From NCBI GenBank assembly GCA_010093995.1, contig ML992504.1, positions 992,001-1,056,000 on the forward strand: DNA of 64,000 bases, in the 5' to 3' direction. The position numbers were made by a program, and so were the translations under genes. This document shows, piece after piece, positions 1,364 to 51,502 of this stretch. Source of the stretch: Elsinoe ampelina (lineage: Eukaryota). How positions within the stretch are numbered: position 1 is the first letter of the stretch; each line of letters starts with the position of its first letter. The notes beneath the pieces were generated by a model, which worked only from the letters and a program-made list of their open reading frames with translations, made no database searches and was not told where the DNA came from.

Positions 1364-2734
1364 ATGGCCGGAGTATTACGAAGGACTTCACGGTTGCTAT
1401 ACGCACCAAGCAAACGATCATTCCGGACGTCAGCAGCCTACAATGCCGCTCAAAATTTCACCATGCCGGCCATGTCGCCTACTATGACCGAGGGAAACAT
1501 TGCTTCATGGCAAGTGAAAGAAGGTAATAAACCAGCTCTACCTGACTTGTCCGTATCTGACCGGGTCACAGGCGACTCATTCTCAGCCGGCGATGTCCTT
1601 CTTGAAATCGAGACCGACAAGGCGCAAATGGATGTAGAAGCACAAGAGGATGGTATACTATTCAAGATTACACAGTCGGACGGCTCAAAAGGAGTCAAGG
1701 TCGGAACACGGATAGCAGTATTAGCTGATCCCGGCGATGATCTGTCTTCTCTTTCAGTGCCAGAAGAGAAATCCTCTTCGACAAGTTCAACACCGAAGCC
1801 AGCGACACCTTCACCACAAGAAGAGACCCAGGGTGGTATCGACGCTGCAAAGTCAAGCGAGTCACAGGCTGAAAGCCCTCCGAGCTCCAAGGCTGGCGCT
1901 GCTGCTCCCTCACCCGATTCATCTTCTGCTTCGACACCATCAGGCAAGTCGACAAAACAAAGATACCCGCTTTATCCTTCGGTCATGTTTGCATTGAAAG
2001 AACATGGCCTGTCGAAAGCAGACGCGGACAAGATACCGGCGACTGGACCGAACGGGAGATTGCTCAAGGGAGACGTTCTGTCATATGTTGGATCAATCGC
2101 AAAGGACTATTCAAGTCAACAGTCAGCCCGCCTGACCAAGCTCGGCCACATGGATCTATCCAAAATTCAAGTAGTACCAGCCGAGACCAAGACCAGAGCA
2201 GCGAAGAAGGAGGAAGCAGTGTCACCCCCACCCCCAGCAGACACCGAGATTGCTTTACCAATCTCGTTGTCAGCCGTCATTGCGACCCAGAAGAGAGTAA
2301 AGGATACATTGGGCATCACCCTGCCACTTGGCGTCTTCATCGGTCGTGCTTCAGAGCTGGCAAATGAAGATCTCCCACTTGCCAAGGGGAAGCCGACTGC
2401 GGACGACCTCTTCAATTCAATCATTGGAGCCGACCAAGTGGAGTCGCGAAGCAGCAGAGGCGCATACTTTCCTTATGTCACAGGTCTATCAGCATCGTCT
2501 CCTGCTACATCAACGAGAGCCAAGAAGGCAGATGTGTTTGACGAAATCCTGGGTACAAAGCCAGCACCACGACGGCAAGCTGCGCTACCACCACTCGTCG
2601 GCGCTGAAGGCGTGGCAACCACGACGAACGTGTTTAGTGTCACGGCGAAGCAGGGAGAGGAACAAAGAGTGCAGACATATCTGGAGCGGATGAAGCTAGT
2701 ATTGGAGGCCGAGCCAGGAAGGCTGGTGCTGTAA
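1364..2734 (+). CDS. PDX1: Pyruvate dehydrogenase complex protein X (E3-binding protein), mitochondrial
   Basis: Arg/Ser-rich presequence from ATG 1364. Lipoyl domain MPAMSPTMTEGNIASW...EIETDKAQMDVEA and E3-binding motif IPATGPNGRLLKGDVL; no acyltransferase catalytic domain. Intron 1524-1571 (GTAATA...CTGAC...CAG). Confidence 0.9.
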   Translation: MAGVLRRTSRLLYAPSKRSFRTSAAYNAAQNFTMPAMSPTMTEGNIASWQVKEGNKPALPDLSVSDRVTGDSFSAGDVLLEIETDKAQMDVEAQEDGILFKITQSDGSKGVKVGTRIAVLADPGDDLSSLSVPEEKSSSTSSTPKPATPSPQEETQGGIDAAKSSESQAESPPSSKAGAAAPSPDSSSASTPSGKSTKQRYPLYPSVMFALKEHGLSKADADKIPATGPNGRLLKGDVLSYVGSIAKDYSSQQSARLTKLGHMDLSKIQVVPAETKTRAAKKEEAVSPPPPADTEIALPISLSAVIATQKRVKDTLGITLPLGVFIGRASELANEDLPLAKGKPTADDLFNSIIGADQVESRSSRGAYFPYVTGLSASSPATSTRAKKADVFDEILGTKPAPRRQAALPPLVGAEGVATTTNVFSVTAKQGEEQRVQTYLERMKLVLEAEPGRLVL

Positions 2735-2852
2735 TCCCACCCTTCCTCAGCAGTGGTGCTGTATATCCCATCCAATCTGTATCTAGCGTTCCGCAGCCAG
2801 CGAACTCTTCTTCCCTCAGTCATCTAATCGTGACAATCATCATATCTTACAC

Positions 2853-4223
2853 TCACTTCCCGCCCTTCTTCCCAAAATACCCCATCAACGTATTCGTCTG
2901 ACCCTTATCAATCACCTTGCCCTTCACCGGACTCACCCCATTCGCCTTATCCTCCTCCCTCTTCTTCTGCGCCTCACTCTTCTCCCCCACCCTCATCAAC
3001 CCCATCAACTCCTCAAACTCCTCGACCTTGACAATTCCCCCAGAAGCCTGCACATGTCCCCTCGCAAAATCGTCCCCCAACCGCTCCAACAACGGCCCCT
3101 TCCCCTCCCCTCCCTCACCCAAGGAAGCATACCCCCTCAACGCCCGGATGATATCCACCTCCTCCCCGCGTCCCCTCGCACACCTCGCCACCCGACACGA
3201 AAAATTCACCTTTCCCTCCAGATACCCCTCGTTCGCAACCATGACGATCTCCAACGCTCTACTGTTCAAATGGCCCGCCCACCGCGTGGCGATCACAGGG
3301 TGGACCTGACACGCGCTCCTGATGCGGAAAACGGCCACCTTGCCGTCGGCGGAGAATTTCGGCGCCGCGTGCGTCGCCCGCTCGACTTCGGCGTTGACTT
3401 CAGCGCGGGCGGCGGCCAGGCGAGGGGAGGTGGAGATGTCCTTGGGATGTGTGGCGGTCAGCAGGGCGGTCCAGGCGGAGAGGACGTCGTAGGTGGCGGT
3501 CCGGCGGGGGGCGTTGAGGAGGGAGACGGCTTCGTTGAGGGCTTTTTTGGTGTAGAGCTTGAGGGGGCCGGACATGTCTGGGAACGGGGGGAGCCATTTT
3601 AGGGTGGTGCCGAGGTCGCCATGGGTGCCGATTATGCAGAGCCAGGAGGTGAGGGGGGAGAGGAGGGGGGAGAGCGGGAGGGTGATGTGGTAGGTGAGGA
3701 GGGAGGTGGTGGCGACGGGTGGGGAGTGGCAGGCTGTCACGTGGGTGGAGTCGGAGGGGAAGTCGGACGGGGTGGAGTGGTGGTGGTCGATGATGAGGGT
3801 GGTGCAGGGGAGGGGGACCAGGGGAGGCGAGGAGCGCGAGCCATGGTCGAGGACGAAGAGGTAGGAGGGGGATAGGGAGGTGAGGCGGGCGCGTTCGTGC
3901 TCGGAGTGGACTGTGGTGCTTTTCTCGAGGAGGTGTACTGAGATGAGGTCTGGTGAGAGGCCGAGCGTGACCAAGGTGCGGTGAAGGATTACGCCGGAGG
4001 AAAGCCCGTCAGCGTCTTTGTCTGGACAGATGATGGTGGGTTTGCCTGCTGCGGCACATTCCTGGATGATTCTCCTAGCGTGATCTATTTGGTCTGCTGG
4101 TGCGGGCCAAATGTCTTGGCCCGATGCGTCCTTGTTGGTGGGGGTGAGGTGGTACTCGGGCACCTCTGGGCGTTTCTTTTTCGAGGGTGATTTGTCCTTG
4201 GTGGGTGCCTCCTTTCGCTTCAT
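2853..4223 (-). CDS. DHH-family phosphoesterase (RecJ-like), intronless
   Basis: DHH motifs in order: DKDADG, LDHG, DHHH and DHHA1-type RGHVQASGG. Likely ATG at 4223 (MKRKEAP..., basic NLS-like). Confidence 0.85.
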   Translation of the reverse strand: MKRKEAPTKDKSPSKKKRPEVPEYHLTPTNKDASGQDIWPAPADQIDHARRIIQECAAAGKPTIICPDKDADGLSSGVILHRTLVTLGLSPDLISVHLLEKSTTVHSEHERARLTSLSPSYLFVLDHGSRSSPPLVPLPCTTLIIDHHHSTPSDFPSDSTHVTACHSPPVATTSLLTYHITLPLSPLLSPLTSWLCIIGTHGDLGTTLKWLPPFPDMSGPLKLYTKKALNEAVSLLNAPRRTATYDVLSAWTALLTATHPKDISTSPRLAAARAEVNAEVERATHAAPKFSADGKVAVFRIRSACQVHPVIATRWAGHLNSRALEIVMVANEGYLEGKVNFSCRVARCARGRGEEVDIIRALRGYASLGEGGEGKGPLLERLGDDFARGHVQASGGIVKVEEFEELMGLMRVGEKSEAQKKREEDKANGVSPVKGKVIDKGQTNTLMGYFGKKGGK

Positions 4224-6975
4224 CTCGACGGCGGCCGTGGATCGGAATGTCCTCCGATTGTTTGTGAACGGGCCAGGTCCAATGCGCCGATAAGGACCAG
4301 GATCTGCAAGCGATGTGAACGGTTTGATGACTTGCCTGTTCGTCGAGGTGAAAGTGCAGCGACGGTGGGTATGCGTATAACTTCGAGACCATGCAGTTCG
4401 TGGTTTGGCTGGGACGGGACTTCTTGTGATGCTAGCGTTGGCGTCCAATAGGGTGCCATGAAAGAGTCGCATCAATGCGCGGTGGAAGAAGCTTTATCGA
4501 CCAGCAGGCACATTGGGCAATCTACCCACTACAAAAGGTAGAAACCCTGCCGATTTCTGCGGAGAAGATGAGAGATTGCGGACAAGGGCGAGGAAAGTCT
4601 GTTCAATGGTGGAAAATCTGCTTACCGCCAGGACGGTCAAATGAAGGATGAATGACCTGAGGTCGACATCTCTGTATCCGTTGAGAAGAGGAACATGTGG
4701 TACTAGCTGCCATTTCTGCCCACAGCTGTCACAGCAGGATCCACGCACCGATCAAATGAGCGCAGGGACAAACGAACAGGTTCCTGATCCAAACAGCATC
4801 CCGCTCGAGCCTCGTCGAAGAGGTGGTGCCACTCCTGGAAAATTTAAGATTATTGTGTGGCTGGTGAAGGCATTGTGGCATCATAAGCTAGCCTGCCTGA
4901 CTCGCGTGAAATGAAAATATTACCAGTGCAGCGTGGTCAGGAGTCAAGACTTGCTCGGCCGGCCGGCAGCGGGGTACTCTATCATCATTTTGCAGACCAT
5001 CTGCGCGTGCTTGTCGTCAACTTGGCTGCTGGTTGCTGTCACGCTACCATACGACTAGAGGCACTATGCTGTGCTTGACCGTCCTTGACTGTCCTTCACC
5101 GCAAACGAAAGAGACCGACTGGAGGGACAGGCTGCATGCATTAATCTATTCTTGTGCCGGACCAAAGCATGACCTATCTCCATCGAGCGCTCATTGGGCC
5201 TCGAATCTGAATTTACCCAGAGATCGGGTGAGCACGACCGAACAAGGCTATTGTCGGGTTGATGAGAGACCGACCCCTCTATCAAAACGAGACAGGGGCG
5301 GAGGCGGCGAGCATCAACATGGGGAAGTAGCGTGCGGATTTGCTGAATGGCATGGATGGCGTGAGAATAGTGGTTCCAGGATACGAGGTGGTTTTGCTAA
5401 AGGGCAAACCATGTACGTCAAAGCTCCGGGGTGGGCGAGCGACTCAGTGACCTCTGGGACTGTGCGACTCGAGCTAAAGAAAGGATGCGGCTCGAGGGGA
5501 GCCCCTAACTAAAACAGACTTTGAGCCTTTGAGGTGAGAGGAAGAGACGGGGGAGCTTAGAAGACTACGACCACCAAACGGTCCACGGTACCTCTGGTCG
5601 GTATCGCGTCAGGTATCTTCGTTGCCAACGGAGCGAAAGAATGGACCGTGGACTAGAGTGGTGGTCGACGGTTTTATTCCACGTCGGCCTATTTGCTTCT
5701 GTTTGGCTCGTGGCATCTGAAAAAAGGATAATAAGCCTCCTAAAGGCATCCTCCCTGCTTTTCCCGTGTGGTTGTGAAGAAGTGTTTCTTCCTCTGACGT
5801 TGCAAGAGCCGGCTGGCGATCCTGAGGCCCCATCCTGATCGCCATCCTGATCATCCCGTTGGCACCTGCTCCCTACCTTTTGCACTGGCGCTGGCACGCG
5901 GCTCTGGCTCTAAATCCATGCCCTGTGAGATCGGCAGGGACGTCTTCAAAGTCAAGCACGAGCTCCACACTCTGGGCTGCTGTCTTTCTTGATCACTCAC
6001 GCGCACACACTTCTTTTCCCCTTCGCTTCAAGCCGCCTGCCGACCCGAGTCATCGATTCACCATTCGTCAGTCCAAAGACGGCCTTCCCCACCGGCCACT
6101 CCTAATCGGGCTCTGATTGGTGTCAGCCTCTTCTGCTGTCCTGCTCTTCGTACTCTTCTCCAGACGCCCAAGCCGAATACACCCTGCGGCGGAACAAACT
6201 CCACCATCTGCACTTTCGCATCTTTCCACGTCCCCAATCCCTCGTCCCTTTCAGCTTTCGCCGCATCGCACAAGCTGACCGGCGCCGTGCCCGCCAGCTG
6301 GTATTCGCCAATCCACTCCCTCGGATTCTTCCGCTGCAGCTTGCCACCACCTGAAGCCTTGTTCACTCCTGCTCACCACAGAGCCGCGGCGCGTCGCTGG
6401 TCTCACCCTACAAAGGCCAATCACAGCCGCCATACTCACAAAACATCATCCACCTTAAGTCGCCTGCCACCACCGCATCCGACCATCACGTCCTCCGTCA
6501 TCCCAGTCTAGCTGTCGCCCGTATCCGTCAAGCGTGCATCTGTGCTGTTGAGGCTGGTGTGGCTGCCGTCGACTGGCGCGGAGTGAGCGACTTGCGGCCA
6601 GCTCCCGGTTGTTCGGTCTCGCGAATGATATTTCCTCTCACCCAACGACATGTCATATCGCCATTGACTGGTATGGATCGACCGCAGGTACTTTAGCCAT
6701 GATCAAATTTCCCGCCGATGTGTGTTGACCAGATTAGAACACGCGTTGACTAGCAAACGATCGATCTCTGGCAAGCTCTTTCTGAAAAGGCAAGAGCCTG
6801 CATGGGACAGTGCTTTCTAGCAGAAATTCCACCTTCATCATCCAAGCAACACTTTACGCAATAGACTCGACTACTTTTCTACTTTCGCCAAAATCTAATT
6901 TCCAAAACCACGGCGTCGACCAGGCAGACTCTGCCTACCACCCTTACTCGGCTGGAGGAAGCTCCGCCAGGTGAG

Positions 6976-8168
6976 ATGACAGAAATCACCACCCCTCCAG
7001 AAGATCTTGGTGCCATCTCTGCTCAAAACTCGGACGTAACACCTCGACCGACTAGACCTGCTCTTGCCCCGCCACTGCGGCTCAAGACCAGTGAACCATC
7101 ACTTGATCAACACGGCACGACAGAACTCGGCCCCAATTCTGATAACCATCCTACCTCAGCCCAACCTCCCGTTGCTACTCAGAACAACTCATCCCCAAAG
7201 ACTGAAAGACTTCCTTCATTCCGTCATATCAGTAAGATAGCTGATTCAGCCGGCGAGGACAGTCGACCATCAAATTATCCACCTCCTCCGCCACCTGTAT
7301 ATCCACCTCCGACAGCAGCGAACCAGTCGCCTGTCTTACCCCACCATCCCCATCCATATCCGCCATCTACACAGATCGGCAGCAACCACTCCTACGGATA
7401 CTCTCTACAACCGTCACCGTCTAGCGCTATCACAGATCCATTCTATCCGACTTCTCCGCCGTCAGCCACGTTCTCGGCGCCAGGCAACATCTACAATCCA
7501 CGTCGTCAGTCGTTCCCAGTCTCTGCTGGTCCTCAGCCTCCTCCACTGAACTCCATGCCGACAGGTTCATCTTCGGGAGAAAGCTACACTCAGACATCTA
7601 GCGTGGGTGAAGGCCAGTCCACGTCCCAGACGACACCAATCGAGCCAGGTCCTCTAGATACCTCGGGTAGACCAAAGTTTCCACTGCCTCCACCAAATAT
7701 GACGGGAGGTGTACCGCCAAACAGCACATCAGCAGGACCTTGGTATTGTGAGCATCCAGGCTGCACCGCATCCCCGTTCCCGACTCAATATCTGCTCAAG
7801 TACGTTACAACTTCTTTCAACACACGTCACTTGCTAACATTCTTAGCTCTCATGCCACGTCGCATTCACAATCTCGACCGCATTACTGCCCAGTACCAGG
7901 ATGCCCTAGGGGCGAAGGTGGCAAGGGCTTCAAGCGCAAGAACGAGATGATTCGTCACGGTCTCACTCATGACACGCCTGGATATGTCTGTCCTTTCTGC
8001 CCTGACAGGGGTCACAAATATCCCCGTCCCGACAACCTTCAACGACACGTGAGAGTACATCACATAGACAAGGATCGCGATGATCCAATGCTACGAGAAG
8101 TCTTGAGTCAGAGAGCGGGAGGAGCTGCTGGCGCAGGGCGTGGAAGGAGGAGAAGGACGGGTCCATGA
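6976..8168 (+). CDS. C2H2 zinc-finger transcription factor (three C-terminal fingers)
   Basis: Pro/Ser-rich N-terminus. Intron 7800-7846 (GTACGT...GCTAAC...TAG) joins CEHPGC..LLNSHATSH to CPVPGC..GFKRKNEMIRHGLTH and CPFCPDRGHKYPRPDNLQRHVRVHH. Confidence 0.88.
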
Positions 8169-10282
8169 GAATTGCAGCCACACACAATATCACCAGACCA
8201 GCATCACGTTTTTGCAACCATCGGTATTCGAAACGTTCGTTCAGCGCCTGCTTTACTTGCGACAAGGAAAGGAAAGATGCTCACAGACGAGACAGCGCAC
8301 CAAAACTGGTCTCCTTTGCTCTCACGGCGGAGATCTCTTGCTATTGCTTTGACGACTTTACTGGATCCGATTGACGACGCCTGAACGATCACGCTTGATT
8401 TGGCCATGTTCGCTCGATCACGCACGTCTGATGCTGTTGTCGATCCGTTTCCTGTTTGGTCATGTTTCCTTTTTCTTCCCTTATCCCGCTCATACCCCCA
8501 AAACTGCTCTGCTTTTTTCCGAGTATTCCTTTACACGAATGGAGGAGGATGACCAACGCCCCAGAAGGACCTTGAACCGGTCGGCACGCTGTATCTAGCT
8601 CAAAAGAGCCAAATGTCTATTTTATCACCCATTTCCCGAACGGTTCTGTACCTCCCTGCATACCTGCACAGACCAACGAATCCTTCATCTGACGCGTCGA
8701 ACACCCCTCTTCGGTATGCGTTGAACCTGCATGGACTCTGCCAAGAAACTGTTTTTTTTGCGCAACGGACCTTTCTCCGACGAGCAGAAATTGCACCCAT
8801 TCCGCGCCTCCAGTGTTCGTTGCAGCCACTTTTCGACGAAGGAGGTCATGATCGACTTCTCCGTGGCTTGTTTGGGATGTACGTCCAGGGGAACTGTACG
8901 TTCAACGCCGGATCATGCCCTGACTACAATCGAAAGTGCCACTTCTTCCACCAATGGGTACCATACCGTTAATGACTGGTACCTGTTCTGCTTACCACCG
9001 CTAGGCTATCAAAGTGCATCTGCCACGCTCAGGAGCTGAGCTATCACTAAGCACAGACTCCCTACTATGTTCAAGCGGTCAGATAGATTGGGAGTCGCTT
9101 GAACAAGCGCCATGTCTCACCTCATTCCCGACCCCAATCGTTCGTCTGGGAGGCGAGAGACACGAGCCGCATCACGATTCAACATCCATGATAGCAACGG
9201 CAGTCGTCAAATGAATTGGCAGCGAGACAATTTACACTCAGACAGAACGTCCGACCTTTCTCGTTTCGACGGTCTCATCTATGGCAGATTGCCTTGGTGT
9301 GCTCCATGCGTACTTCAACTTCTTCTTAGTGATTCGAGGAGAACAAGCAGATCCAGGTTTTAGATTTCCTCGACTCAGATCTCAACGGCCGTCCCAAAGA
9401 GACGGACATGGGGATCTCTGGGAAGCGCACACGATCTACGTATTTGTTTGAGAACGGCACAAAGATTTGACCGGGAGGACTGAGACTGACAGCTGATATG
9501 GCACGTGACAGGACATGACGACTCACGACGTATACCAAAGATGTACTACATTTCTATTCAGGCAGCATTGGCCGAGTCTCACGTGACAATTATTGGCATC
9601 CTCCTGGACAATGACATTACAGCATGGATAAACACTCACGGCTCTCAGCGGACAACGATGCCGCAATCCATCACATGACGATCACTGAACGCTCGCATCT
9701 GGAAATAGCGACGACACACTTTCGGTCATGTAAAACATCGTCCAACGGCCATGAGACCAACCTATCACTCTCCTCTCCTCGAACAGACCACCTATTTGCC
9801 TCTCCACGCCACAAACCTGTACCATCCGCTTCAACAGCTGAGCATCACGTCTCAAAACACCTCGCCACTTCTCCTCCATGACTACCCTGCCATTCCCCCC
9901 TCGCACAACCACCCCACAACCAGTCGGCCCCAATAATAATGAAAGATAAGAACCCCCCCGCCGTTGTCCGTTACCAACCTCTCGCCTACCGTTGCCTACA
10001 GTCCTACCCGCCTCACCCGTCTCCCAACCAGTCAACCCAGCGACAGCTCGTCGGCCTCCCCTCCCCTCGCTCGCGCCCCGTCGCTCTTCCCACCCGACCA
10101 ACCGGCGGCAAAGCGGCTTTCTCCTCCCGCGAGTCGGTGCCTGGTACGTGGCCCGGCGGAGACTCAGCCCTGCGGCCGCTGCGTCGACCGTGGATCTGCG
10201 AAGGAAGGGAGAGAGTGCCGGAGCCGGAGCCGCGGTGGCGATGGAGGCGAGGGAGGGATAGTGGATGGGCTTGGTACCGGGA

Positions 10283-10307
10283 GGGGGGGGGGGGGGGGGG
10301 GGGGGGG
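10283..10307. repeat. Poly-G homopolymer (25 G)
   Basis: Read directly in the sequence. Confidence 0.95.
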
Positions 10308-10841
10308 CGCGGGAATGGGTTAGGGGTCGGGGCCTGGGGGGGTGTTTGGGTTTAGGGGACGAGACATTGCAGACTTCGTGATACAGCAGCAGAAATGGAG
10401 TGAAATACGCGAGACATGCCATTCGCGATGTGCTGTGGTGGAGGATGGTGGGAGGACTGGGATAGACGGATTCTGGTCACCGCATTCCATGGGCACGGGA
10501 TGTGGAGGATAGAGCAGGAAATTCCTCGATTCAGTCTGCAGAGCTCAACTCCACTGCGTCTGCTGCCTAGGGGTATCTAGTCCTCCTCCTTCTGCTGTCG
10601 TCTCGTGCCCGATGTTCCCATGACTCCCTGCTTGAGTTTATGAACGAACAGGTCCCTGATCCTGACTGCCCAAAGGGAATTTCGCTTCGTGATGTTTCCG
10701 CAATCGGTAGTTGACTGCTATGAAAGAAATGGGTCGTGTATCGTTTCTTCGTGATTATGCTGGTGAGATATATGTGTGGTTCATCAATCTGTGATGGGGT
10801 GGTGGAAATTAAGCATATGATTCGGGGAGTGCAAGACTGGC

Positions 10842-12545
10842 TCAGAAGCCCAGCACGATTTGTGGTGGCGAGTCCTCGCGCACGGTCGTGGTGGTGGAAA
10901 GTTGGCTGGGTTCACGCTTGGTGCCTGCCAAAGGACGAAGAGGTCTGTTGCCTGCTTGCAGCATTTTGAGATCAAAGTTCTTAAAGTCGAGATTCAAGGT
11001 ATTGGCTGTCAGGGCTTGGATCTCCATGATGTCTGTTGGGGCGGTGGAGTCGACTCGTTGCATGTCTGCTGAAGAGGCATTGCGGGACCCGCTCTGAGTG
11101 GTTAGGCCGGAGGCGGAGGAGTAGGAGGTTCGGTTGGTGCTTGAGCTAAGAGTGGACTTGAGGGGATCGGGAAAGTTGTGGGCCTCGTATGTGGGTGGCT
11201 GTAAAATCCAGTCTTCGAGAATGTCCATCTTATAATTGGGACGGACGTAGCGGCCGTCTGCGATCATGACGCTGCTGTGGCGAGGAGTGTCACCGAGCAG
11301 AATGGGTTGACAGCGCTTGATGTATCTGTAGGTCTGAGCTGCGGTGCGAGGATGAGGGGGCGCCCATTTGCCGTCGGAACCAAAGTTGAGTGCGTAAAGC
11401 TCAGCAATGGTGGGACGCGTGGACTGTGTCGCCTCGGACGATACGAACGACCTCTCCGCATTTGATGCTCCTGATACCGGGCGCTGCGTAGGTGCTTCTT
11501 CGGCGATTGCAGAGAGATCGATGTCCTCTTGATCCTGCTCGGGCGCTGCCAATGGTGCTGTAGAAGTGGTGACCGAGTCCTCCCTGACAGGCTCGAGATT
11601 TGATCTCGTTCGTTGAAGTGCATTCTCTGCATTGCCCCTCATCGAAGGATAAGCTGCGAGCAGTCTACGCTGTTCCTCAATGAAGCGTGGATCGCTCATG
11701 TCGTTTGCTGTGACCTCGCGTTGTTGGCGTCTCCGACGGCGTGGCATTGTGCATTGCCGGGGTAGTGTCCGCTCATCGAGTGCGGGTGCAATGTCGATAC
11801 CCGCTGAAATGTGGTTGACCCATGACATGATCTGCTCCTCAGCCTGATATGTGAGAACAAACTGGTCGAGCTCGGAACGAAGGCGTAGACCGTAATGTCT
11901 ATCGACGCGAAACAATTCAGGATCCTTCTCGTGTGCCTTCTTCCTAGCCATGGGTGGGATGAGGGTAGCCAATCGACATGTCGGAACAAGCACACAATGT
12001 GTGATGTCCGGTGCCATTCCGACTTCAGCGTGCTGTAATGTGTATTTTCTGAGAACTCTTCCGGGGGTGAATATTTGTTGTTTCCCTACGATTGTCGTCT
12101 TCAACTTGTGGATGATGAGAATGGTGCCTTGCAGTACGACGTATACTGCTCGCCATTCTTGGAATGGTAATATTAAAAACGGTGAGCACGACTCAAGTCG
12201 CATCTGCATTGGACCCTCCTTGAACACCGAGCACGTGTACTTTGGAAGCACCTCGCGTCCACGGTCCCAGTGTCGTGGTGAAGGAGGAAATCGTGCTTGA
12301 TGTACTGCATTCGTGTATGATGGCGGAGCGTCGTTTGAAATGGCACACCTCGAAGAGAACTGGTTGTAGTAACTTGTGACCCTTCGTTCCGTGGTTCCAT
12401 TCCTCCTGCTGCTACTCCGTCCAGGTCTGAGCTCTCTGCAACTTGCTGGTAGGAATCCGGCTTGCTCTAGACCGAGAATGGATAATGCCATGGGCGAGAG
12501 GTGTGAGCTGTGGGCAGCGCTATCTGCCTCTGTGTTGGAAGGCAT
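10842..12545 (-). CDS. Fungal PH-domain protein (YHR131C/YNL144C-like)
   Basis: Long intronless ORF with PPSY and LPKYTCSV motifs, then a PH-like core WRAVYVVLQGT...YTLQHAEVG...LRLRSELDQF...WVNHISAGIDIA. Confidence 0.75.
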   Translation of the reverse strand: MPSNTEADSAAHSSHLSPMALSILGLEQAGFLPASCRELRPGRSSSRRNGTTERRVTSYYNQFSSRCAISNDAPPSYTNAVHQARFPPSPRHWDRGREVLPKYTCSVFKEGPMQMRLESCSPFLILPFQEWRAVYVVLQGTILIIHKLKTTIVGKQQIFTPGRVLRKYTLQHAEVGMAPDITHCVLVPTCRLATLIPPMARKKAHEKDPELFRVDRHYGLRLRSELDQFVLTYQAEEQIMSWVNHISAGIDIAPALDERTLPRQCTMPRRRRRQQREVTANDMSDPRFIEEQRRLLAAYPSMRGNAENALQRTRSNLEPVREDSVTTSTAPLAAPEQDQEDIDLSAIAEEAPTQRPVSGASNAERSFVSSEATQSTRPTIAELYALNFGSDGKWAPPHPRTAAQTYRYIKRCQPILLGDTPRHSSVMIADGRYVRPNYKMDILEDWILQPPTYEAHNFPDPLKSTLSSSTNRTSYSSASGLTTQSGSRNASSADMQRVDSTAPTDIMEIQALTANTLNLDFKNFDLKMLQAGNRPLRPLAGTKREPSQLSTTTTVREDSPPQIVLGF

Positions 12546-42820: not shown

Positions 42821-42949
42821 CTAGGAGGGCCATCCGCAGCAGCCGGACAAGAGGTATAAGTAGACCGCTTCATTCCATATCTCACACACGGGGACCATCC
42901 ACCGCAAGACATCCAAGCCTCTCATCCACATCTCAATCTACCATCCAAC

Positions 42950-43698
42950 ATGAAGTTGTCCACTGTCCTCGCCGTCCTAGCAGGCTCCGCCATCGCCTCC
43001 CCCGTCCCAGCTGAGGAGAGCAAGGCCCTCGTCAAGCGCCAGAGCATCAACTACGTCCAGAACTACAACGGCAAGCTCGCCAACTTCCAGTACAACCAGG
43101 GCACCGGTGGCATCCACGCCGACTGGAACAATCCTAGCGACTTCGTCGTCGGTCTCGGCTGGAGTCAGGGTACCTCCAACAGGGTCATCAACTTCGGCGG
43201 ACAGTACACCTCCTCGTCCTCATCCTACCTGACCGTCTACGGCTGGCTCAACAGCCCCCTTACCGAGTACTACATCGTCGAGAACTACAGCTTTGACCCC
43301 TGCTCAGTCAGTAACACCCAGGTCGTCGGTAGCGTAACCAGCGACGGCTCCACCTACAAGATCTGCAAGCACACTCAGGTCAATCAGCCATCCATCGTCG
43401 GCACTGCCACTTTTGGACAGGTAAGTGCCAAAGACATGCTGTTGATCGACCTAGTCAAGTCCTAATATGTGCACAGTACTTCTCCGTCCGCCAGAACAAG
43501 AGGAGCTCGGGCAGCGTCACTGTCGCCAATCACTTCAATGGTGAGTCTCTTCCAATCATGCTAATCATGGGCACCTGCTGATTAAACTGCGCAGCTTGGA
43601 AGAAGTCTGGCTTCGCCGCCAGCAACTACAACTACCAGGTCTTTGCCGTCGAGGCCTTCGGAGGCTCCGGTAGCGCCAACCTTCAGGTCAGCGGTTAA
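42950..43698 (+). CDS. Endo-1,4-beta-xylanase, GH11
   Basis: Signal peptide and KR propeptide; FVVGLGW, YLTVYGW, EYYIVE (nucleophile), NQPSI.GTATF, and YQVFAVEAFGGSG in the last exon. Introns 43421-43476 and 43541-43594. Confidence 0.95.
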
Positions 43699-44160
43699 AC
43701 GCCAGGCCACCACTCAACCTCGCTTCGTTTCGAAGACTGTGCACCTTTTTGTTATCCCACAAAAGTACGAGCCCTTCAAAAAACCATCATCTTCGTCGAA
43801 CATCATCCTCAGGGGGTCCATTCGGGCGAGCTAAGAGAAAATCACTACTGCTCCTGGTGGAACCAAATTCTTGTATATATCATTCTCCGTTGGCAAGTCA
43901 TCGACATGAATCGATCTTGTTCATCAGGCTGTGCTTATTTGGTATTGTGTGCCGCGAATGTAGAGGATGAATACTACAGCTGCTACAATGCTGACCAGAG
44001 CCTGAATGCTTCTGCTGGTGATGGTAGGATTCCAAATTGACACTCGTCATCCATGAATGTCTTCCTCAATCCGAAAATGGCAGTGACACTCTCCCCACGC
44101 ACAGGAACTAACCTTTCAGGGAACGCCTCTCTTCCTTCGGCCGATTTCCACCGTCATGCA

Positions 44161-44226
44161 TACGGTAGCTTCCGCCAAAACAGTCAAAACAGTCAAAACG
44201 CTCAAAACCATCAAAACGCTCAAACC
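44161..44226 (+). repeat. Left TIR with 9-bp CAAAACnnT subrepeats
   Basis: TACGGTAGCTTCCGC then CAAAACAGT CAAAACAGT CAAAACGCT CAAAACCAT CAAAACGCT CAAAC. Confidence 0.9.
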
Positions 44227-44451
44227 TAGCATTTGCTATTACACCACCTCCCCGCGCACCACCTATACCACTTATTGCAATGATTCTTATTGCAATCGAC
44301 AGCTCTCATGACGCTCTATCGTTTGATGTAAGTATTATTCTCTTATTGTATACCTTCAGTTTTTTGTGGCTTGGCGCCGGTATAAAAGCCAGGTGCGCTG
44401 GTTTTCTGTACCTTCCTTCCTATTACCCCCTAACATACCACACCACTCGAT

Positions 44452-46050
44452 ATGGCTTCACAATCCGCTGCAATCGAGGTGGATAGGCCTCTTATCGAGT
44501 ACTAGTTGCTGCACGAGCGCTGTAATTAGCCTAAAGTACTCTAGAGGCTATTAAGGCGTAGTTACACCCTGTCGCTTAGAACGCTCTAGCGCCTCTTGCA
44601 AGGCTGGCAGCTCTCCACCCACCCTAAGGCACTAGTCGACTCCGAGGCCCTCTGCCGCAGCATTAAGGAGCTATTCCAGCTACGCATCAGCTGGCAAGAG
44701 ACGCTAGAGGTACTAAAAGAGCAAGGCTTCGATATATCGTTAGGGATGCTAAAGCGCCTATGTAAAGAGTTAGGCCTTATCTATCGGATTGATCGAGAAG
44801 AGGACGAGGTTAAGTACAAGCGAACACGGCAGCTACTGCAAAGCAAATACGACGCTAGTAATATTAAGGATTAGGGCCTCGGCCACCTTTACACCTATAT
44901 AAGGCAGAAGCATAGGATTGTCGGGAGGTAATACGTGTTTACAATGCGTTTGCCAGTCGGTTTACTAACTCTAACCTAGTCGGCGCCTTTACCGCGCCGC
45001 AATTGTAATTAATTCCTTAGCGTTCTAGATTTGTAGTGACTAGCGGCCTGCCGGTCACGGCGTACAAGACGTGCTAGGGCTAAACTATACCTGGTCGATG
45101 GACGCCTATTGCAAGCTTAAGGAGTATAGCATCGAGATTTACGCCGCAATTGACGAATTTTCACGCTACATCGTTTGGGCCTATATAGGCTTCTCGGCAA
45201 GGAAGGCTATATCAATTGTAAAGCAGTACACTACTATTGCTACCTTATGTAGCCGGATCCCCCTCGAGATCCGCACGGATAGAGGGGGCAAGACTGCGAT
45301 GGTCTTATAAGCGCATCTCGACGCTCGGCGTTAGCTAAGTAGTCTCCCTTTAGAGGTGGATAAAGCCTTCTTATTCGGCACAAGTAAGCAGAATTAGCGT
45401 ATTAAATTATAGTAGGCCCAGCTTGCAAAGAGCACTACGAACCGCTAGCGAAGATAGTTTGCCGAGCTAAAGAAGTTAAAGCGCTAGAAGCGCAATCTTA
45501 TCGCTTACTAAGTCGCTCTTATAGCTGTGTACACGCCTATCCTTTGCGTAGAGGTGTAGCAATTCGTGCATTAATAGAACTATCACCGCATCTAGAAGCA
45601 GCCGAGACAACCGCACACGATTATAGAGGTGCCGAGGCTCCTATATCATTATCTAGGGATAGTCGGCGTATAGAACTATACCGTTACTATACTACCTAAC
45701 TAATTCGACGATTTAGACTAGTACACTAGCGAATTCGGTAAGGTGCGAGTGCTAATAGATATTTGCAGCTAATTAAGCACTAGATTACAAGTAATATCTA
45801 CCCTCTAACACCCTTAATCTCTATACCTTAATTCTCTCCGCTGCCGGCCTCTAGCCTTATAATAGTTAAGCAACTAATGCTTGTAGTGTTAGACTCCACT
45901 AGAGGGCTTATTTCATGCTTCGTGATGCACTAATCGAGCACGATTAATAGCAGCGCTATTCTCTACTATCGGAGTGCTAAAAACTAGATAATCCTCGAGG
46001 CTATCAATTACGTACAGAAGTTGCCGAGCAAATCGCAAACGCCGAGTAAA
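44452..46050 (+). pseudogene. RIP-degraded Clr5-like + DDE transposase
   Basis: TATAAAA at about 44381, ATG 44452. Two Clr5-like HTH repeats (SLRTL*RLLQGW; ISLGMLKRLCKELG), intron at about 44928-44979, then TWSMDAYCKL..IEIYAAIDEFSRYIVW, PLEIRTDRGGKT and GTSKQN*RIKL** (de-RIP: NQRIE.WW). End approximate. Confidence 0.85.
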
Positions 46051-46176
46051 CACACTACGAATATCTAACTTATGTATATTAAATCCCCCCTCTAATATAC
46101 TAGGGCTTTCCTACTCTATTTTCTCTACGGTTTTTGCTTATTACTGCTGTGTTGTTTATTTGTTACTACTAGCGAG

Positions 46177-47860
46177 ATGCCGCTACCTTCTTAGGCACCT
46201 TTTTATAAATATAAAGGCTCTAATTACGTAGTTAAATATAGACACCTCGCTGAGTGTCCTATTTACTATAAGACTAATCTAAACCATTAATAAGCAAGCA
46301 TAGCATTAACGCTAGAAGAGCCTTAGTGCTAACCTATATAGGCCAGTCTATCTCGCGCACTATCTAGTAGTCTAACTTGCGCGCTATCTTAGGCTAACAT
46401 AGACTAACTCGCGATTACAGCGGCGAATATAAAGCGATCTATAGCGCCGGCGCTAACCGCATATAGTAGTCTCTCGACTAAAGCCGATACAGTAAGGCAT
46501 ACTAGATACTAGAAGGGCAAAAAGGCTAAAGGCGTGGCAGCACAATTGCCACATACAGGATCTTTGCTAGTCTCTTAGCGTTTGTATAAGAACTCGCCGA
46601 ACAATTCGCCTAACGAAGAAACTCCTAAAGAACTAAAGGCTAATAAAGAGCAAAGGATTAGACTTCACCTCTACGGCCTAACAATCGAGATAGAGTATAA
46701 GCTTAAGTATAGCATGCCTTATAAGAAGATTGTCTCTTAGCTAGAGCTAACTAAGTAGACAGACTAGATTACGCCGTTAGAGTTTAATGCCGAATTGCTA
46801 GAGAGTGACTACTAAAGAACGTTCTTCTTGTTAAATTTAGTCTATAGTCACTGCCCTAATCCTGCTATCCGCGATCTAGAAATAGTAATACCACGCTTTA
46901 CGAAGCGCTATTTCGCACTAATAGAGAACGATAAGGCTATGCCTATTACTAATAACGTCTTCTAGTAGCTAAGCATCTAGAAGATGTTAGTTGGCCTCCT
47001 ACGTAAGTCAAAATCGAAGCGTACTACTATCGAGCATCTCCTTTACGTCGTGATTAAACAAGCTAAGGACGACAAGTCGAAGGAATAGTGGAAGCGTATA
47101 GAGTATCTATAGAGAGAGTTAGGATCTCCGAGTTACGCTGCGAACGCTAATGTAAATACAATAATATCCTTAGCTACGAACACCGAAGCGAATATTAAGG
47201 CTAATTCGTAGGATAAAAATCTTTTTATAGAGGACACCGACTTCTTGTTTTTGAATACTTCTAACGACGTTAATATTAAGCCGGAACCCTTGTCGGTTAA
47301 TAATAAGATTAAGGCCTTAATCGAGGAGCGCACATAGCAAGTTTTAGTAGCTAGGGCAAAGGGGAAGGAGAAGTAGCCTAGCTAGCTCGTTAACGGCAAG
47401 GAGACTATCGACCTTATAGAGTCTTCACTAGCCGCACCTGCTGCTGCCGTGCTAGCTCTACCACTAGAGACTCTACGCTTCTAGCTTCGTGCTAGGAGCC
47501 TTCTTGCAAGCATACCGACTAGCATAGTCGGCGGTGTTAAGTCATTAACTACATAGGACAATCTCTTTAACTTAGATAGTACCGCCGAGCCTCTACTACC
47601 TTTTGACACCCCTCGGTAGCCACAGCGTGTAGTGCTAAGTAAGGAGACCCTCGGCAGGCTAATAAACTTGCTATATAGCTCTCCCTTTAAAGCTAAGTCG
47701 TCTATAGGATTAGAGTAAAGGATTAAGACTAAGGTAACCTCTAAGGAGCATTAAGAATAGTACGAGCAAGTTAACGAGCCTAAGCAATTATATCAACCTC
47801 GAACACATAAGCAAACACGAAGCGATCACTCGGTTAAGGCTAGTAAGCGTTAAAAGACTA
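46177..47860 (+). pseudogene. RIP-degraded accessory ORF2 of the transposon, unknown function
   Basis: ATG 46177 and about 1.7 kb of protein-like frame broken mainly by TAG/TAA (e.g. RTFFLLNLVYSHCPNPAIRDLE, ARAKGKEK); no domain recognised. Confidence 0.55.
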
Positions 47861-48222
47861 TAGTTAATCCAACTGACTACACTCTCTGTAGTTACACTAG
47901 CTACAAGGCTAAAAGGCCTTACAAGTCTATGCTAGGGTTATAGGCTTGCCTAAAAGGGTAAGGCGTGGTTTGACACCCTATATATATACTTCTTCTTGCT
48001 AATAATTCTCTTCTAGTAAAAAACCTCTTTACGGAGAGGAGGGAGGAGAGGAAGGAGAGTAAGAGCCCCCTATGCAGCGGAGGGTACAAGCACCCTCTAC
48101 TACATCCCACCGCCTTACTATTAGGGTAGTAGGGTAGAGAGGGGGGATGCGAGGGAGGGTAGGGGTAGGGGTAGCGGTAGGGGTAGGGTCAGGGGCAAAG
48201 GTGTTAGTTAGGGGTGCACGAA

Positions 48223-48415
48223 TTAGACAGTGTAAGTTAGACAGTAGTAGAACAGTTCGCGGTGCAAGCTAGATAGGTGGTAGACCAGTTTGCAGTGCGA
48301 GCTGGACGGCAGTATACGAGTTAGACGGCAGTAACGAGTTAGACGGCAGTACGAGCTAGACGGTAGTAACGAGTTAGACGGCGGTGTACAAGTTAGACAG
48401 TGCAAGGTAGACAGT
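48223..48415. repeat. Degenerate tandem repeat (unit about 16-20 bp, GAGTTAGACGGCAGTA) inside the transposon
   Basis: Repeated GAG(T/C)TAGAC(G/A)G(C/T)(A/G)GT units read directly. Confidence 0.8.
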
Positions 48416-48559
48416 GCGAGTGGAATTGCTAGTAGTTCGCTAAGTAATTCGTAGTATATACAGTTACGATTTAACATCGACTAGAGGAGGCGATACAAAG
48501 GGGGTAAAATTACAGTCTATAAACTCCAGGAGAATGTATAGGTATCATGTTCGCTACTA

Positions 48560-49260
48560 GTTTATAGGCCTATTCGCAAGTTTCGCAATTCTATCCCTTA
48601 GCTACTATAGCTTAGCCTTAGTAGCAAGCGCATTATTCTCTAGCGCCTCTACTCTCTACTTAAGCTCCTTAATGCGGCCCGCAGTCACCGGCTTCTAATC
48701 CTCTAGCTCCTCCTTCGTAAGCTAAGGGGCGTACCCCTAGCGATAGTAGCAGTAGCAGTATATATACGACTTAGACGGCTTATTAAGGAAGCAAGCACAC
48801 AGCTCGTTTGCCTTCATACACTGTTTATAGGCGCGTTCGCTAATGCCGCCTTCGTCTGTCTCTATAATGCAGCCGATGGCGTCGTACATGCGGAGCGTTA
48901 TAAAGTCCTTACTACGCTTGTTACTACTAGTCTCGCAGGTGTTAACGAGCTTAAACTAGTTTAACTCGGAGATAAACTAAAATCTGGCTGGATTCTCGGT
49001 CTTAGGGCGGCGGTACGAGTATGTAATAGGGTAGCTATGCGAATCAGTGGCGAACACTAGCCTAAGGAGCTACGAAGACATATACGGCCTTAGAGTTACT
49101 AGTTATTTCCTTAGAGGTATTAGAGGCATAGGGATCGTTGTTGATCGCAGCGTCTAGCGCTTGCGGATTGTATCTTCTAGAAGGCAAAGTCAGTAGCGAA
49201 CCAGCTGCGAACATGCTGTGATGCATACTTAGTAGAGGTTGCTTTAGTAGTGTTAGCTAT
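48560..49260 (-). pseudogene. RIP-degraded accessory ORF3 with Cys-cluster and coiled-coil signature
   Basis: Minus-strand intron 49177-49228 (GTATGC..CTGAC..TAG). Frame reads LRMYDAIGCII..ERAYKQCMKANELCACFLNKPSKSYIYCYC..RIKELK*RVEALENN. Limits approximate. Confidence 0.5.
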
Positions 49261-49768
49261 AGTAAATATTTAATTAAATTTGACAGGGTCGTAATAGTAT
49301 AGCAGGGTTCTAATCAAACTACATAGTAACTGCAAGCTTATATATATCAAAGCTGCCATCATTGTTGCTAGTTTGAATAGTAACAATAGTGACAATAGTA
49401 ACAATATAAAGACCTAAAAGCGGCAAGGAACAATAAACACCCACCGGATTAAGCCTTACTCTTAGCAGCTTAAATAGAGGACAATAGAGATCTATTCTGA
49501 CAGTATTCGCAGTGCATTCGCCGCCGCAGTCGCATGATGTAGGCAATATCAAGGTGTTAGAGGTAGGAGTACTAGCGGAGTGCCAAGCACCTCGCCGCCT
49601 AGCCGCTGTAACACGCACTAATTACGCCAGCACTAAAATCAGCTCAAAAAAAATGCTTGAAGTTGGAGGATGATAGAATAGATTAATCTGATCAATTTAC
49701 TGTTAATTGTATATCAATATTGACAGAATTGAGGGAGTTAGAGGCCTCCAAACTTTGATGATTTGGGG

Positions 49769-49815
49769 ATTTGAGTGTTTTGATGGTTTTGACGGTTTTG
49801 GCGGAAGCTACCGTA
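49769..49815 (-). repeat. Right TIR with CAAAACnnT subrepeats
   Basis: Reverse complement reads TACGGTAGCTTCCGC CAAAACCGT CAAAACCAT CAAAACACT CAAAT. Confidence 0.9.
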
Positions 49816-50089
49816 TGCACGACCGTCATTTCGGACAAACTCTCCTCTCCAAATGGACGCGACCTCGCCAGAAAAGTCTCACACCTACATCTCCAAAAAG
49901 TTTACCATCCACTACACGCTGAGGGACTCTCAGAACTCTGGCGCTTGGTATTGCACACGTCTTGGTCCCAGTGCGAGGTCAGACCGTGCTGATTATAGGG
50001 GCTCACGGACTACATAAAGCACTCAAGGTATGCCTGCGGGTTTGTAGACCATCTTTAACAACCGTATCTCGATCGTCCTTCTTCTTACC

Positions 50090-51502
50090 ATGCATTTCTT
50101 GCCCCTCCTGACCCTCGCCTCACTGGCGTCAGCGACACCTTTCGTCAAAAGGCAAAGCGGTGCACAGTGCAGCATTGCTGCCTATGACAGCAAGACAAAG
50201 GCATACTTCTACCAGAAGGGCGCCTCCATCGCTACGTCATCTGGCTGTGGCACCAAGTGCAATTCAGATAGCAAGTGCAAGAGCTTTGCTGTCGGGAATG
50301 GCGCATGTCTGCTGTACACTGTGCCTGTGTATGTCTTCTCAAAGACGATTCGATGACATGCACTGATCATTGTCCAGAGCTGGCAATATCGAAAAGAATG
50401 CCAACAGCCCTTATCGTTTCTTCGACAAAGCATGTACGACGACCACTACTACGACTCGGACTACGACCACGACAGCTACCACGCCGACCACCACCACAGC
50501 TGCGTGAGTGTCTTCGCTTCCATGATCTGGTTGAGATGGCGCTAAAATCCATTCAGAACCACGACCATTTCCACGACAGCAACCACGACGGCAGTTTCGA
50601 CTACGGCTACCGCCTCGCCTACGCCGAGCCTTTGTGGGCTAAGAGGCTACGACAAGAATGCACCAAAGGCCTACTCAGCAATTCAGCAGAGCTCGCTGAC
50701 TGCCTGCGCCAACAGTTGCCAAGTGTCGCTGTCGTGCAAGACGTTCGCCTACGGCCAGAGCACTTGCTACCTCTACTCGACAACCCTCCCGGTCAACTAT
50801 CGCGCTGGTAAGAACATTCCTCCGATCTGTCCAGCCCTCGGCGAGATGGTCACTGCTAAATATTCCTAGACGACACATCCATTTTCGCCTTCTACGCCAA
50901 GGGCTGTAGTGTGGTAAGTATATGCGGCCAGGTAGGCCTCAGGTCAGGGAGCTGATCTAATCCGGCGACAGAACCCAGCTACGACGACAACAACCACCAC
51001 TACAGCGACCACGACTACGTCAACCACGACCACACCAAGTACTACTCCTGCCACTACACCGAGCACTACACCTGCGACTACACCTAGCACTACTCCTGCC
51101 ACTACACCGAGCACTACACCTGCGACTACACCTAGCACTACTCCTGCCACTACACCGAGCACTACGCCTGCCACTACACCGAGCACTACGCCTGCCACTA
51201 CACCGAGCACTACCCCTGCCACCACACCGAGCACTACCACCTCTTCCACGGCTGCAGCTTCGCCGACATGCATCTATGCCGGAGTACCAAATGGGCAGCA
51301 AGATGGTCTTGTTACTGCGACAAGTGCGCTAGACTGCAAAGCTCAATGTATAGCGAGACCAGTTCCCTGCTTGGCCTTCGTGTATGTTTCAATCGAAGAG
51401 GACAATTGTTTCACCCTCAACTATCGATTGAATCTTCCGGGCGACCTGACCTACGTCCCTGGTTATTTTACTGGCAATGCCGACTGCGTTGAAGGCGCTT
51501 GA
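50090..51502 (+). CDS. Secreted mucin-like protein with three Cys-rich PAN/Apple-like modules and Thr-rich linkers
   Basis: Signal peptide and KR; modules CSIAAYD..CGTKC..CKSFAV..CLLY, CGLRGYD..CANSC..CKTFAY..CYLY and CIYAG..CKAQC..CLAFVY..CFTL; four short introns (first 50329-50377); TGA ends 51502. Confidence 0.75.
51030..51238 (+). repeat. Coding minisatellite, 24-bp unit (TTPATTPS), about 8 copies
   Basis: ACTAC(T/A/G)CCTGC(C/G)ACTACACC(G/T)AGC repeated in tandem. Confidence 0.9.

Follow-up and report, generated by a model that had tools for sequence, protein, structure and literature searches.

A 64,000-nucleotide stretch of contig ML992504.1 of Elsinoe ampelina (assembly GCA_010093995.1, positions 992,001 to 1,056,000), hereafter called the window, contained at positions 44161–49815 an element of 5655 bp with terminal inverted repeats (TIRs) and three open reading frames (ORF1 to ORF3). 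The element, whose coordinates were set by an earlier note made on the letters of this DNA, is interpreted here as a copy of an autonomous IS3EU-superfamily DNA transposon, full-length in structure, that lies in intergenic DNA of a filamentous ascomycete and was inactivated by repeat-induced point mutation (RIP). We put the probability of this reading at roughly 0.85. Feature positions, counted from the first letter of the window, are collected in Table 1.

Analysis of the base composition set the element apart from the surrounding DNA. The guanine plus cytosine (GC) content was 0.400–0.483 in the six 1-kb intervals from 44001 to 50000, and at least 0.503 in all other 1-kb intervals of the window. 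Within the element, the RIP indices TpA/ApT and (CpA+TpG)/(ApC+GpT) were 1.77 and 0.73, vs. 0.66–0.74 and 1.14–1.19, respectively, in the 5-kb flanks; low GC content and RIP-type indices were thus limited to the element. Its ends form an inverted repeat with arms at 44150–44209 and 49767–49826 that are 88% complementary over 60 nt. Both ends are identical over 25 nt, consisting of TGCA and the first 21 nt from TACGG, and this sequence was found nowhere else in the window; in a shuffle control for this inverted match, none of 100 shuffles gave any match. The TIRs include subterminal direct repeats with a 9-bp unit, present in 5.4 copies of CAAAACNNT on the left (44176–44224) and in 3.1 copies on the right (49777–49804).

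Although single-copy within the window itself, the element is multi-copy in its own genome, and almost all changes among its copies are C>T or G>A, the signature of RIP. This was observed in contigs from two public runs (X1 and X2) of one sample, from which the window may derive (the search turned up no run of any other strain), of which 761 and 848 pieces matched the window at a likeness of at least 80%. Summed contig depth was 1395–4093 over the element vs. 156–205 on its flanks, a 7- to 26-fold excess that is not a copy number and is taken to mean no more than several to many divergent copies or fragments. The differences between copies in run X1 comprised 329 C>T, 307 G>A, 79 A>G, and 61 T>C changes, with 32 transversions in total. 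The earlier note had named a lack of other copies as grounds for abandoning a transposon; by contig depth and by the diverged pieces, other copies do exist in the same genome. The contig of one such copy skips 48031–48425, and the repeat stretch between the convergent ORF2 and ORF3 therefore differs in length among copies. Besides the 18-bp tandem repeat (Table 1), G-rich hexamer repeats (48152–48195) lie between these two ORFs.

ORF1 encodes an rve-fold DDE transposase with a paired helix-turn-helix N-terminus. Read with its stop codons as X, it consists of three exons separated by two introns, both with GT..AG ends and branch sites of the CTAAC/CTAAT type. Intron 2 was placed because the frame moves from 2 to 3 and there is no other way of joining the exons; acceptors at 45768, 45777, and 45783 would each keep the frame, the last giving a typical intron of 46 nt. 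Exons 1 and 2 are colinear with residues ~29–153 and 164–396 of P0007, a related protein described below. Exon 3 matched the C-termini of the transposases of two related metagenome loci, L005 and L006 (tblastn, E-value (E) 0.006), and its pattern Y..LR.....H agrees with the A1 consensus. The motifs of the window copy are WSMDAYCKL, IYAAIDEFSR, RTDRGGKT, and SKQNxRIKLxx, and Pfam recognised rva_4 (PF24764, ‘Integrase core domain’) with E 3.8e-12 and 46.8 bits, vs. a cut-off of 26. Besides rva_4, the six X-read frames gave only a weak rve match (E 0.036) in this Pfam search, and nothing else at E ≤ 1. Exon 1 shows two tandem units and is colinear with the N-termini of the relatives P0012, P0007, and P0004 (E 3e-11, 4e-14, and 3e-7, respectively). 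In the Protein Data Bank, a profile search of the sequences of known structures returned only weak RpoN helix-turn-helix matches (E 0.004–0.047). The earlier note had described Clr5-like helical repeats and an integrase-like core in ORF1; the motifs are present, and exon 1 is homologous to N-termini of relatives that score as Clr5.

ORF1 of the window copy is a dead gene. Stops number 5, 18, and 9 in the three exons, 32 in all, and every one of them is TAG or TAA. Both catalytic Asp residues are retained (WSMDAY and RTDRG), and the catalytic Glu is replaced by Lys (NxRIKL vs. NQRIES in P0007). Because of the 32 premature stops and this replacement, the window copy is unable to move itself.

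Relatives of the transposase were retrieved with phmmer, using ORF1 exon 2 against 1.84 billion representative proteins. This search matched 737 proteins at E ≤ 1e-3, 265 at E ≤ 1e-10, and 22 at E ≤ 1e-30, with a top identity of 41%; a word-based search with the same exon, covering longer proteins only, gave no match, and the family was found by the HMMER search. Thirty of the 150 listed proteins, picked mainly for length, were scanned with Pfam. All 30 carried rva_4, and Clr5 (PF14420) was present at the N-terminus in 14 of them at E ≤ 0.01 and in nine above the Pfam gathering cut-off of 22.3 bits, reaching 50.8 bits over two stretches in P0061. An integrase zinc-binding (H2C2/HHCC) domain was found by Pfam neither in the window frames nor in these 30 relatives. 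The relatives named by NCBI, from Venturia inaequalis, Annulohypoxylon maeteangense, and Aspergillus spectabilis, are recorded as ‘hypothetical’ or ‘uncharacterized’ proteins, so that the earlier remark that proteins combining Clr5 and an integrase are usually annotated as ordinary genes held for all three examined. P0007 was modelled with AlphaFold from an alignment of 18 sequences; the model (confidence score, pLDDT, 82.3) comprised two three-helix units and further helices, followed by an alpha/beta core. Foldseek hits of this model, at E between 1.5e-5 and 4e-3, were TnsB (Tn7/CAST), the MMTV, HIV, PFV, and RSV integrases, IstA, and Mu transposase. The TIRs, the rva_4 match, and the fold matches all agree with the core proposal of the earlier note, a TIR transposon with a Clr5-like, IS3/rve-type DDE transposase.

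A scan of metagenome contigs found 273 relatives, of which 80 loci were kept. A quick tree was drawn from the 66 rows that had a single high-scoring segment pair of at least 170 aa; loci falling short of this, such as L055 and L067, were left out. The window sequence was placed on a very long branch (1.63) together with L001 and L005/L006, in no starred clade. The window ends showed no nucleotide likeness to any of the 80 loci.

Assignment to IS3EU was made on the ends and on one of these loci. IS3EU, a Repbase superfamily since 2013 that groups with GingerRoot, is described as always having TA..TA ends and usually a 6-bp target-site duplication (TSD; PMC10045372). Fungal members have TIRs of more than 30 bp, TAYGG..CCRTA ends, and 6-bp TSDs, and carry a transposase gene with a convergent alpha-kinase gene and, in some, a TET/JBP gene in between (PMC12730594). 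In the window copy, TACGG (44161) and CCGTA (49815) open the perfect part of the TIR of about 60 nt and fit TAYGG..CCRTA, and the termini given in the earlier note (TAY..RTA) agree with both descriptions (PMC10045372; PMC12730594). Inverted repeats of this form flank the transposase in L036, L047, L055, and L065, in L008 with one end changed, and probably in L067, where the contig ends. The L047 element (4555–11106, 6552 bp) has TACGG ends and a perfect 6-bp TSD (TCCCTG), together with a Tet_JBP-like ORF (E 8.4e-6, below the Pfam cut-off) and a convergent ORF of 350 aa. Its transposase is 35% identical to P0007 (E 2e-51), and its first 20 nt differ at one position, compared by eye, from the consensus of IS3EU-1_TuIn in Table S1 of PMC12730594. 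Because L047 combines IS3EU ends, TSD, and TET/JBP-like ORF with a start close to that of IS3EU-1_TuIn, the Clr5 + rva_4 clade was joined to the published IS3EU elements. The superfamily is thus already known and at most the family is new: the undescribed fungal family suggested by the earlier note does not stand as a kind of element, IS3EU being long in Repbase (PMC10045372) and multi-gene fungal members having been published, although the gene set of the window element may define a new family within IS3EU. In filamentous ascomycetes IS3EU elements are routinely annotated, and they are reported as the most abundant class of DNA transposons in Colletotrichum lupini (PMC11645255).

Several observations weigh against this assignment. 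A 6-bp TSD is missing from the window copy: TACGG is preceded by CATGCA and CCGTA is followed by TGCACG, which share only TGCA. Of the four relatives in which both flanks are present and the ends are sharp at TAYGG, three have no TSD and only L047 has one; metagenome contigs of repeats may combine flanks of different copies, and this shortage was not counted against the family. Pfam detected no Clr5 in exon 1 of the window copy at E ≤ 10, the top match being Arg_repressor (E 0.023). The ends of L001 and L005/L006 lie beyond their contigs, which leaves the subclade of the window without a relative with verified ends. Neither ORF2 nor ORF3 was matched by Pfam or, at E ≤ 0.1, by tblastn in any of the 80 related loci, and ORF2 gave no hit at E ≤ 0.01 in a search of 5.8 billion proteins. 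Hidden Markov models (HMMs) of the 40 largest recurrent ORF clusters near the relatives were run against the six frames, and all accessory clusters remained at E ≥ 0.039; the cluster HMMs that did match were alternative frames of the transposase only. Finally, the link of the transposase to Repbase IS3EU is an indirect one, through L047 and IS3EU-1_TuIn. Alternatively, the fungal Clr5 + rva_4 clade might be a separate, unnamed rve-type superfamily that merely resembles Repbase IS3EU. No paper linking the Clr5 domain to transposases was found in the literature searched, and the word Clr5 is absent from PMC8232023 and PMC12730594. We nevertheless consider a separate superfamily very unlikely, as L047, itself a member of the clade, has the ends, TSD, and TET/JBP cargo of published IS3EU elements and a TIR start nearly equal to that of IS3EU-1_TuIn.

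It could also be argued that nothing here is mobile, and that host genes clustered in an AT-rich isochore happen to be flanked by a fortuitous inverted repeat; the single copy in the window and the lack of a TSD of the expected length would be in line with this. RIP acts on repeated DNA, which argues against a host cluster, and the multiple genomic copies with RIP-type differences contradict it directly. Together with the perfect 25-nt inverted repeat, unmatched in any shuffle, and the homology of ORF1 to transposases, they make this explanation extremely improbable.

More evenly balanced is the question of where the IS3EU copy begins and ends. The mobile unit may, with about even chances, be 44149–49827 (5679 bp), having imperfect outer ends and TACGG/CCGTA in a subterminal position 12 nt inside; its TSD would then be ATTTC (5 bp) or, allowing one mismatch, a 6-bp repeat. 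The inverted repeat does run on outside TACGG, 44150–44160 and 49816–49826 pairing at 9 of 11 positions (9 of 12 with one more base per side), and ATTTC stands directly outside 44149 and 49827 on both sides. Single-copy flank contigs end at 44177 on the left in both runs and begin at 49798 on the right in X1. If the contigs are paths of a 31-mer graph, in which a contig breaks off where one of its 30-mers also occurs at another locus, the common 30-mers reach 44148 and 49827, within 1 nt of the ends of this longer unit. Two other readings suit the same letters: ends at TACGG/CCGTA with a 4-bp TGCA duplication at a near-palindromic target, or ends TGCATACGG..CCGTATGCA (TG..CA) with a 9-bp TSD, CCACCGTCA vs. 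CGACCGTCA, matching at 8 of 9 positions. The break positions favour 44149–49827, because the TGCA and TG..CA readings predict breaks at or beyond 44190/49786 and 44186/49790, respectively. In run X2, however, the right flank contig begins at ~49870, about 55 nt outside the element, and contig breaks can thus have other causes. TAYGG is also internal to longer TIRs in L048 and L055, whereas the published IS3EU consensus sequences of PMC12730594 have TAYGG as their very first bases, the TIRs of four relatives set in sharply at this motif, and IS3EU ends are described as always TA..TA (PMC10045372). A 6-bp TSD scrambled by RIP was considered and rejected, as five of the six positions would need to have changed in flanks that are otherwise un-RIPed. 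The TIRs of L048 (57–4462) and L055 (18–7896) are very long (172 and 196 nt, respectively) and hold further internal TAYGG motifs; the inverted repeat of L055 extends 2 nt past TACGG, giving outermost TG..CA, similar to the TGCA of the window copy.

ORF2 and ORF3 are probably family-specific accessory genes, a coding status that was deduced from codon-position composition. The base composition was non-uniform among codon positions in ORF2 (chi2 55.2, p 4e-10) and ORF3 (chi2 37.1, p 2e-6), as it was in the ORF1 exons (p about 1e-4), and all three ORFs shared an A-rich, G-poor second position; in three non-coding parts of the element no such departure was seen (p 0.13–0.28). ORF2 also holds a single frame over its 598 codons. 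Alternatively, ORF1 might be the only gene, followed by 3.7 kb of non-coding filler in which ORF2 and ORF3 are chance frames that appear once stops are read through. The failure of both ORFs to match Pfam, the 80 loci, or the cluster HMMs, and of ORF2 to match any of the 5.8 billion proteins, would fit such filler, and stop density fails to tell frames apart in RIPed DNA: in ORF1, the frame known to be coding contains as many as 11 stops per 100 codons. Given the shared compositional skew, the long single frame of ORF2, and the arrangement common in relatives, we regard chance frames as unlikely.

This arrangement, in which the strand of the transposase carries a second ORF and a small ORF lies in convergent orientation, was often seen among the metagenome loci. 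In the close relative L005, for example, the second ORF is 609 aa long; neither ORF2 and this ORF nor ORF3 and the convergent ORF of L005 showed similarity. Pfam was run on 90 of 132 candidate neighbour ORFs, a set that excluded duplicates (L053) and, in long contigs, ORFs distant from the transposase. Convergent ORFs of 168–184 aa with DUF3716 adjoin Clr5 + rva_4 transposases in L008, L009, and L038 (E 3e-14, 1e-12, and 8e-7, respectively), which suggests that the DUF3716 ORF is a recurrent IS3EU accessory gene. ORF3 resembles these ORFs in position, strand, and size. Its identification as a RIPed DUF3716 protein was rejected: a MAFFT alignment gave 17% identity, hhalign a probability of 0.05, and Pfam no DUF3716 at E ≤ 10. 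The earlier statement that intact ends show the mobilisation of a defined three-gene element was borne out only in part, as ORF2 and ORF3 lack detectable relatives and the window copy lacks the 6-bp TSD of the family. Other mobile-element genes adjoin the transposase in some relatives, namely a piggyBac-type DDE_Tnp_1_7 transposase (L036, 3281–5245), an NDC10_II-domain protein (L043, 3159–4247), a retroelement integrase (L034, 9353–10204), and a reverse transcriptase (L052, 4484–5794), suggesting neighbourhoods rich in transposable elements (TEs).

By analogy with the family, the transposase of an active member would bind the 9-bp subterminal repeats through its paired N-terminal helix-turn-helix units, and its RNase-H-fold DDE core (rve clan, shared with IS3/IS481 transposases, TnsB, and retroviral integrases) would cut the ends and join the 3'-OH groups to a staggered target, normally leaving the 6-bp duplication of the IS3EU superfamily. 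The element family multiplied in the genome, and RIP struck it afterwards. ORF2 and its convergent neighbour ORF3 would most likely have been carried as passengers or accessory genes specific to the family, a frequent feature of fungal IS3EU.

The element was compared with several known systems. Bacterial IS3/IS481 elements share its catalytic fold and the motif layout W..D, ..D..SR.. strand, DRG, N..E of the IS3 pattern. They differ in being prokaryotic and intron-free, with TG..CA ends and a different N-terminal domain, and usually have a frameshifted OrfAB and short TSDs. Ginger1, Ginger2, and IS481EU are, like the window element, eukaryotic DNA transposons with rve-type integrases. The integrase of Ginger1 and Ginger2 has an HHCC (H2C2) zinc finger, which was not found in the Clr5 + rva_4 clade; among the metagenome loci, the ORFs with an H2C2/HHCC domain belong to unrelated retroelements, in L034 and L069. 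IS481EU, known from parabasalids, has TSDs of about 4, 15, or 25 bp (PMC10045372). With IS3EU itself (IS3EU-1_TuIn of Tuber indicum and the Pucciniales elements of PMC12730594), the window element shares fitting TACGG..CCGTA ends, a TIR longer than 30 bp, an rve-type DDE transposase with a helix-turn-helix N-terminus and without HHCC zinc finger, and additional genes, of which one runs convergently to the transposase gene. It differs in lacking a 6-bp TSD, in a repeat unit that is possibly 12 nt longer per end, in having no TET/JBP or alpha-kinase gene detected by Pfam, in accessory ORFs unrelated to any seen beside the relatives, and in being heavily RIPed and dead. REP9/Styx of Zymoseptoria is described as a 7.9-kb element with four genes, 43-bp TIRs, and 6-bp TSDs in 33 of 36 copies, with nine copies in one strain and 16 in another and with DUF3716 reported for REP9-1 and REP9-2 (PMC8232023 and PMC10853768). 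Compared by description, it too has TIRs, several genes, multiple copies, and an IS3EU-like integrase in an ascomycete capable of RIP, and it shares DUF3716 with L008, L009, and L038; the window element is smaller (5.66 kb), with three ORFs and no DUF3716 in ORF3.

Table 1. Positions of the features discussed, in the window unless a metagenome locus is named.
Feature	Position	Strand	Remarks
Left terminal inverted repeat	44161..44224	.	begins TACGG; includes 9-bp subterminal repeats
Right terminal inverted repeat	49767..49815	.	finishes CCGTA; includes 9-bp subterminal repeats
ORF1 exon 1	44452..44927	+	frame 1; two tandem helix-turn-helix units, Clr5-like in relatives; 5 TAG stops
ORF1 intron 1, 52 nt	44928..44979	+	GTAAT...TACTAAC...TAG
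ORF1 exon 2	44980..45737	+	frame 2; rva_4/rve DDE core; 18 TAG/TAA stops
ORF1 intron 2	45738..45783	+	donor GTAAGG at 45738; frame change 2 to 3
ORF1 exon 3	45784..46049	+	C-terminal part of transposase; approximate end, TAA at 46047–46049
ORF2, 598 codons	46177..47970	+	one frame, no frameshift; 32 TAG/TAA stops
18-bp tandem repeat, 5.2 copies	48292..48398	.	between convergent ORF2 and ORF3
ORF3, 175 codons	48556..49081	-	10 stops; Cys/Tyr-rich middle, heptad-like C-terminus
Possible outer extension, left	44149..44160	.	pairs 9/12 with 49816–49827; last 4 nt TGCA alternatively a 4-bp TSD
Possible outer extension, right	49816..49827	.	first 4 nt TGCA alternatively a 4-bp TSD
ATTTC, left copy of candidate 5-bp TSD	44144..44148	.	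if element is 44149–49827; sequence read directly
ATTTC, right copy of candidate 5-bp TSD	49828..49832	.	sequence read directly
GH11 xylanase gene	42860..43465	+	upstream of element; Pfam E 5.5e-38
Secreted protein gene, PAN domains and long Thr/Pro-rich repeats	50091..51502	+	downstream of element
DUF3716 ORF, L008	3953..4456	-	Pfam
DUF3716 ORF, L009	3585..4106	-	Pfam
DUF3716 ORF, L038	4565..5116	-	Pfam

The element lies between a GH11 xylanase gene and a gene for a secreted PAN-domain protein, whose ATG at ~50091 is some 275 bp from the element. An insertion splitting a host exon was considered and rejected, as the site is intergenic. RIP or heterochromatin spreading from the element could alter the expression of the PAN-domain and GH11 genes. 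Annotation of the element covers a block that gene callers would miss or break into pseudogenes; in all other respects it is a commonplace, inactive transposon copy. The Clr5 domain of Pfam takes its name from a silencing factor of fission yeast and is found widely among fungal proteins that are recorded as ordinary genes. We raise tentatively, as a doubtful idea, that this domain might be the end-binding double helix-turn-helix of IS3EU transposases, in which case many host proteins with a Clr5 domain would be such transposases or domesticated pieces of them. On the assignment made here, fungal genes annotated as ‘Clr5 domain / integrase core domain-containing protein’ would be IS3EU transposases, and recognising them as such would aid TE masking and gene counts in ascomycetes.

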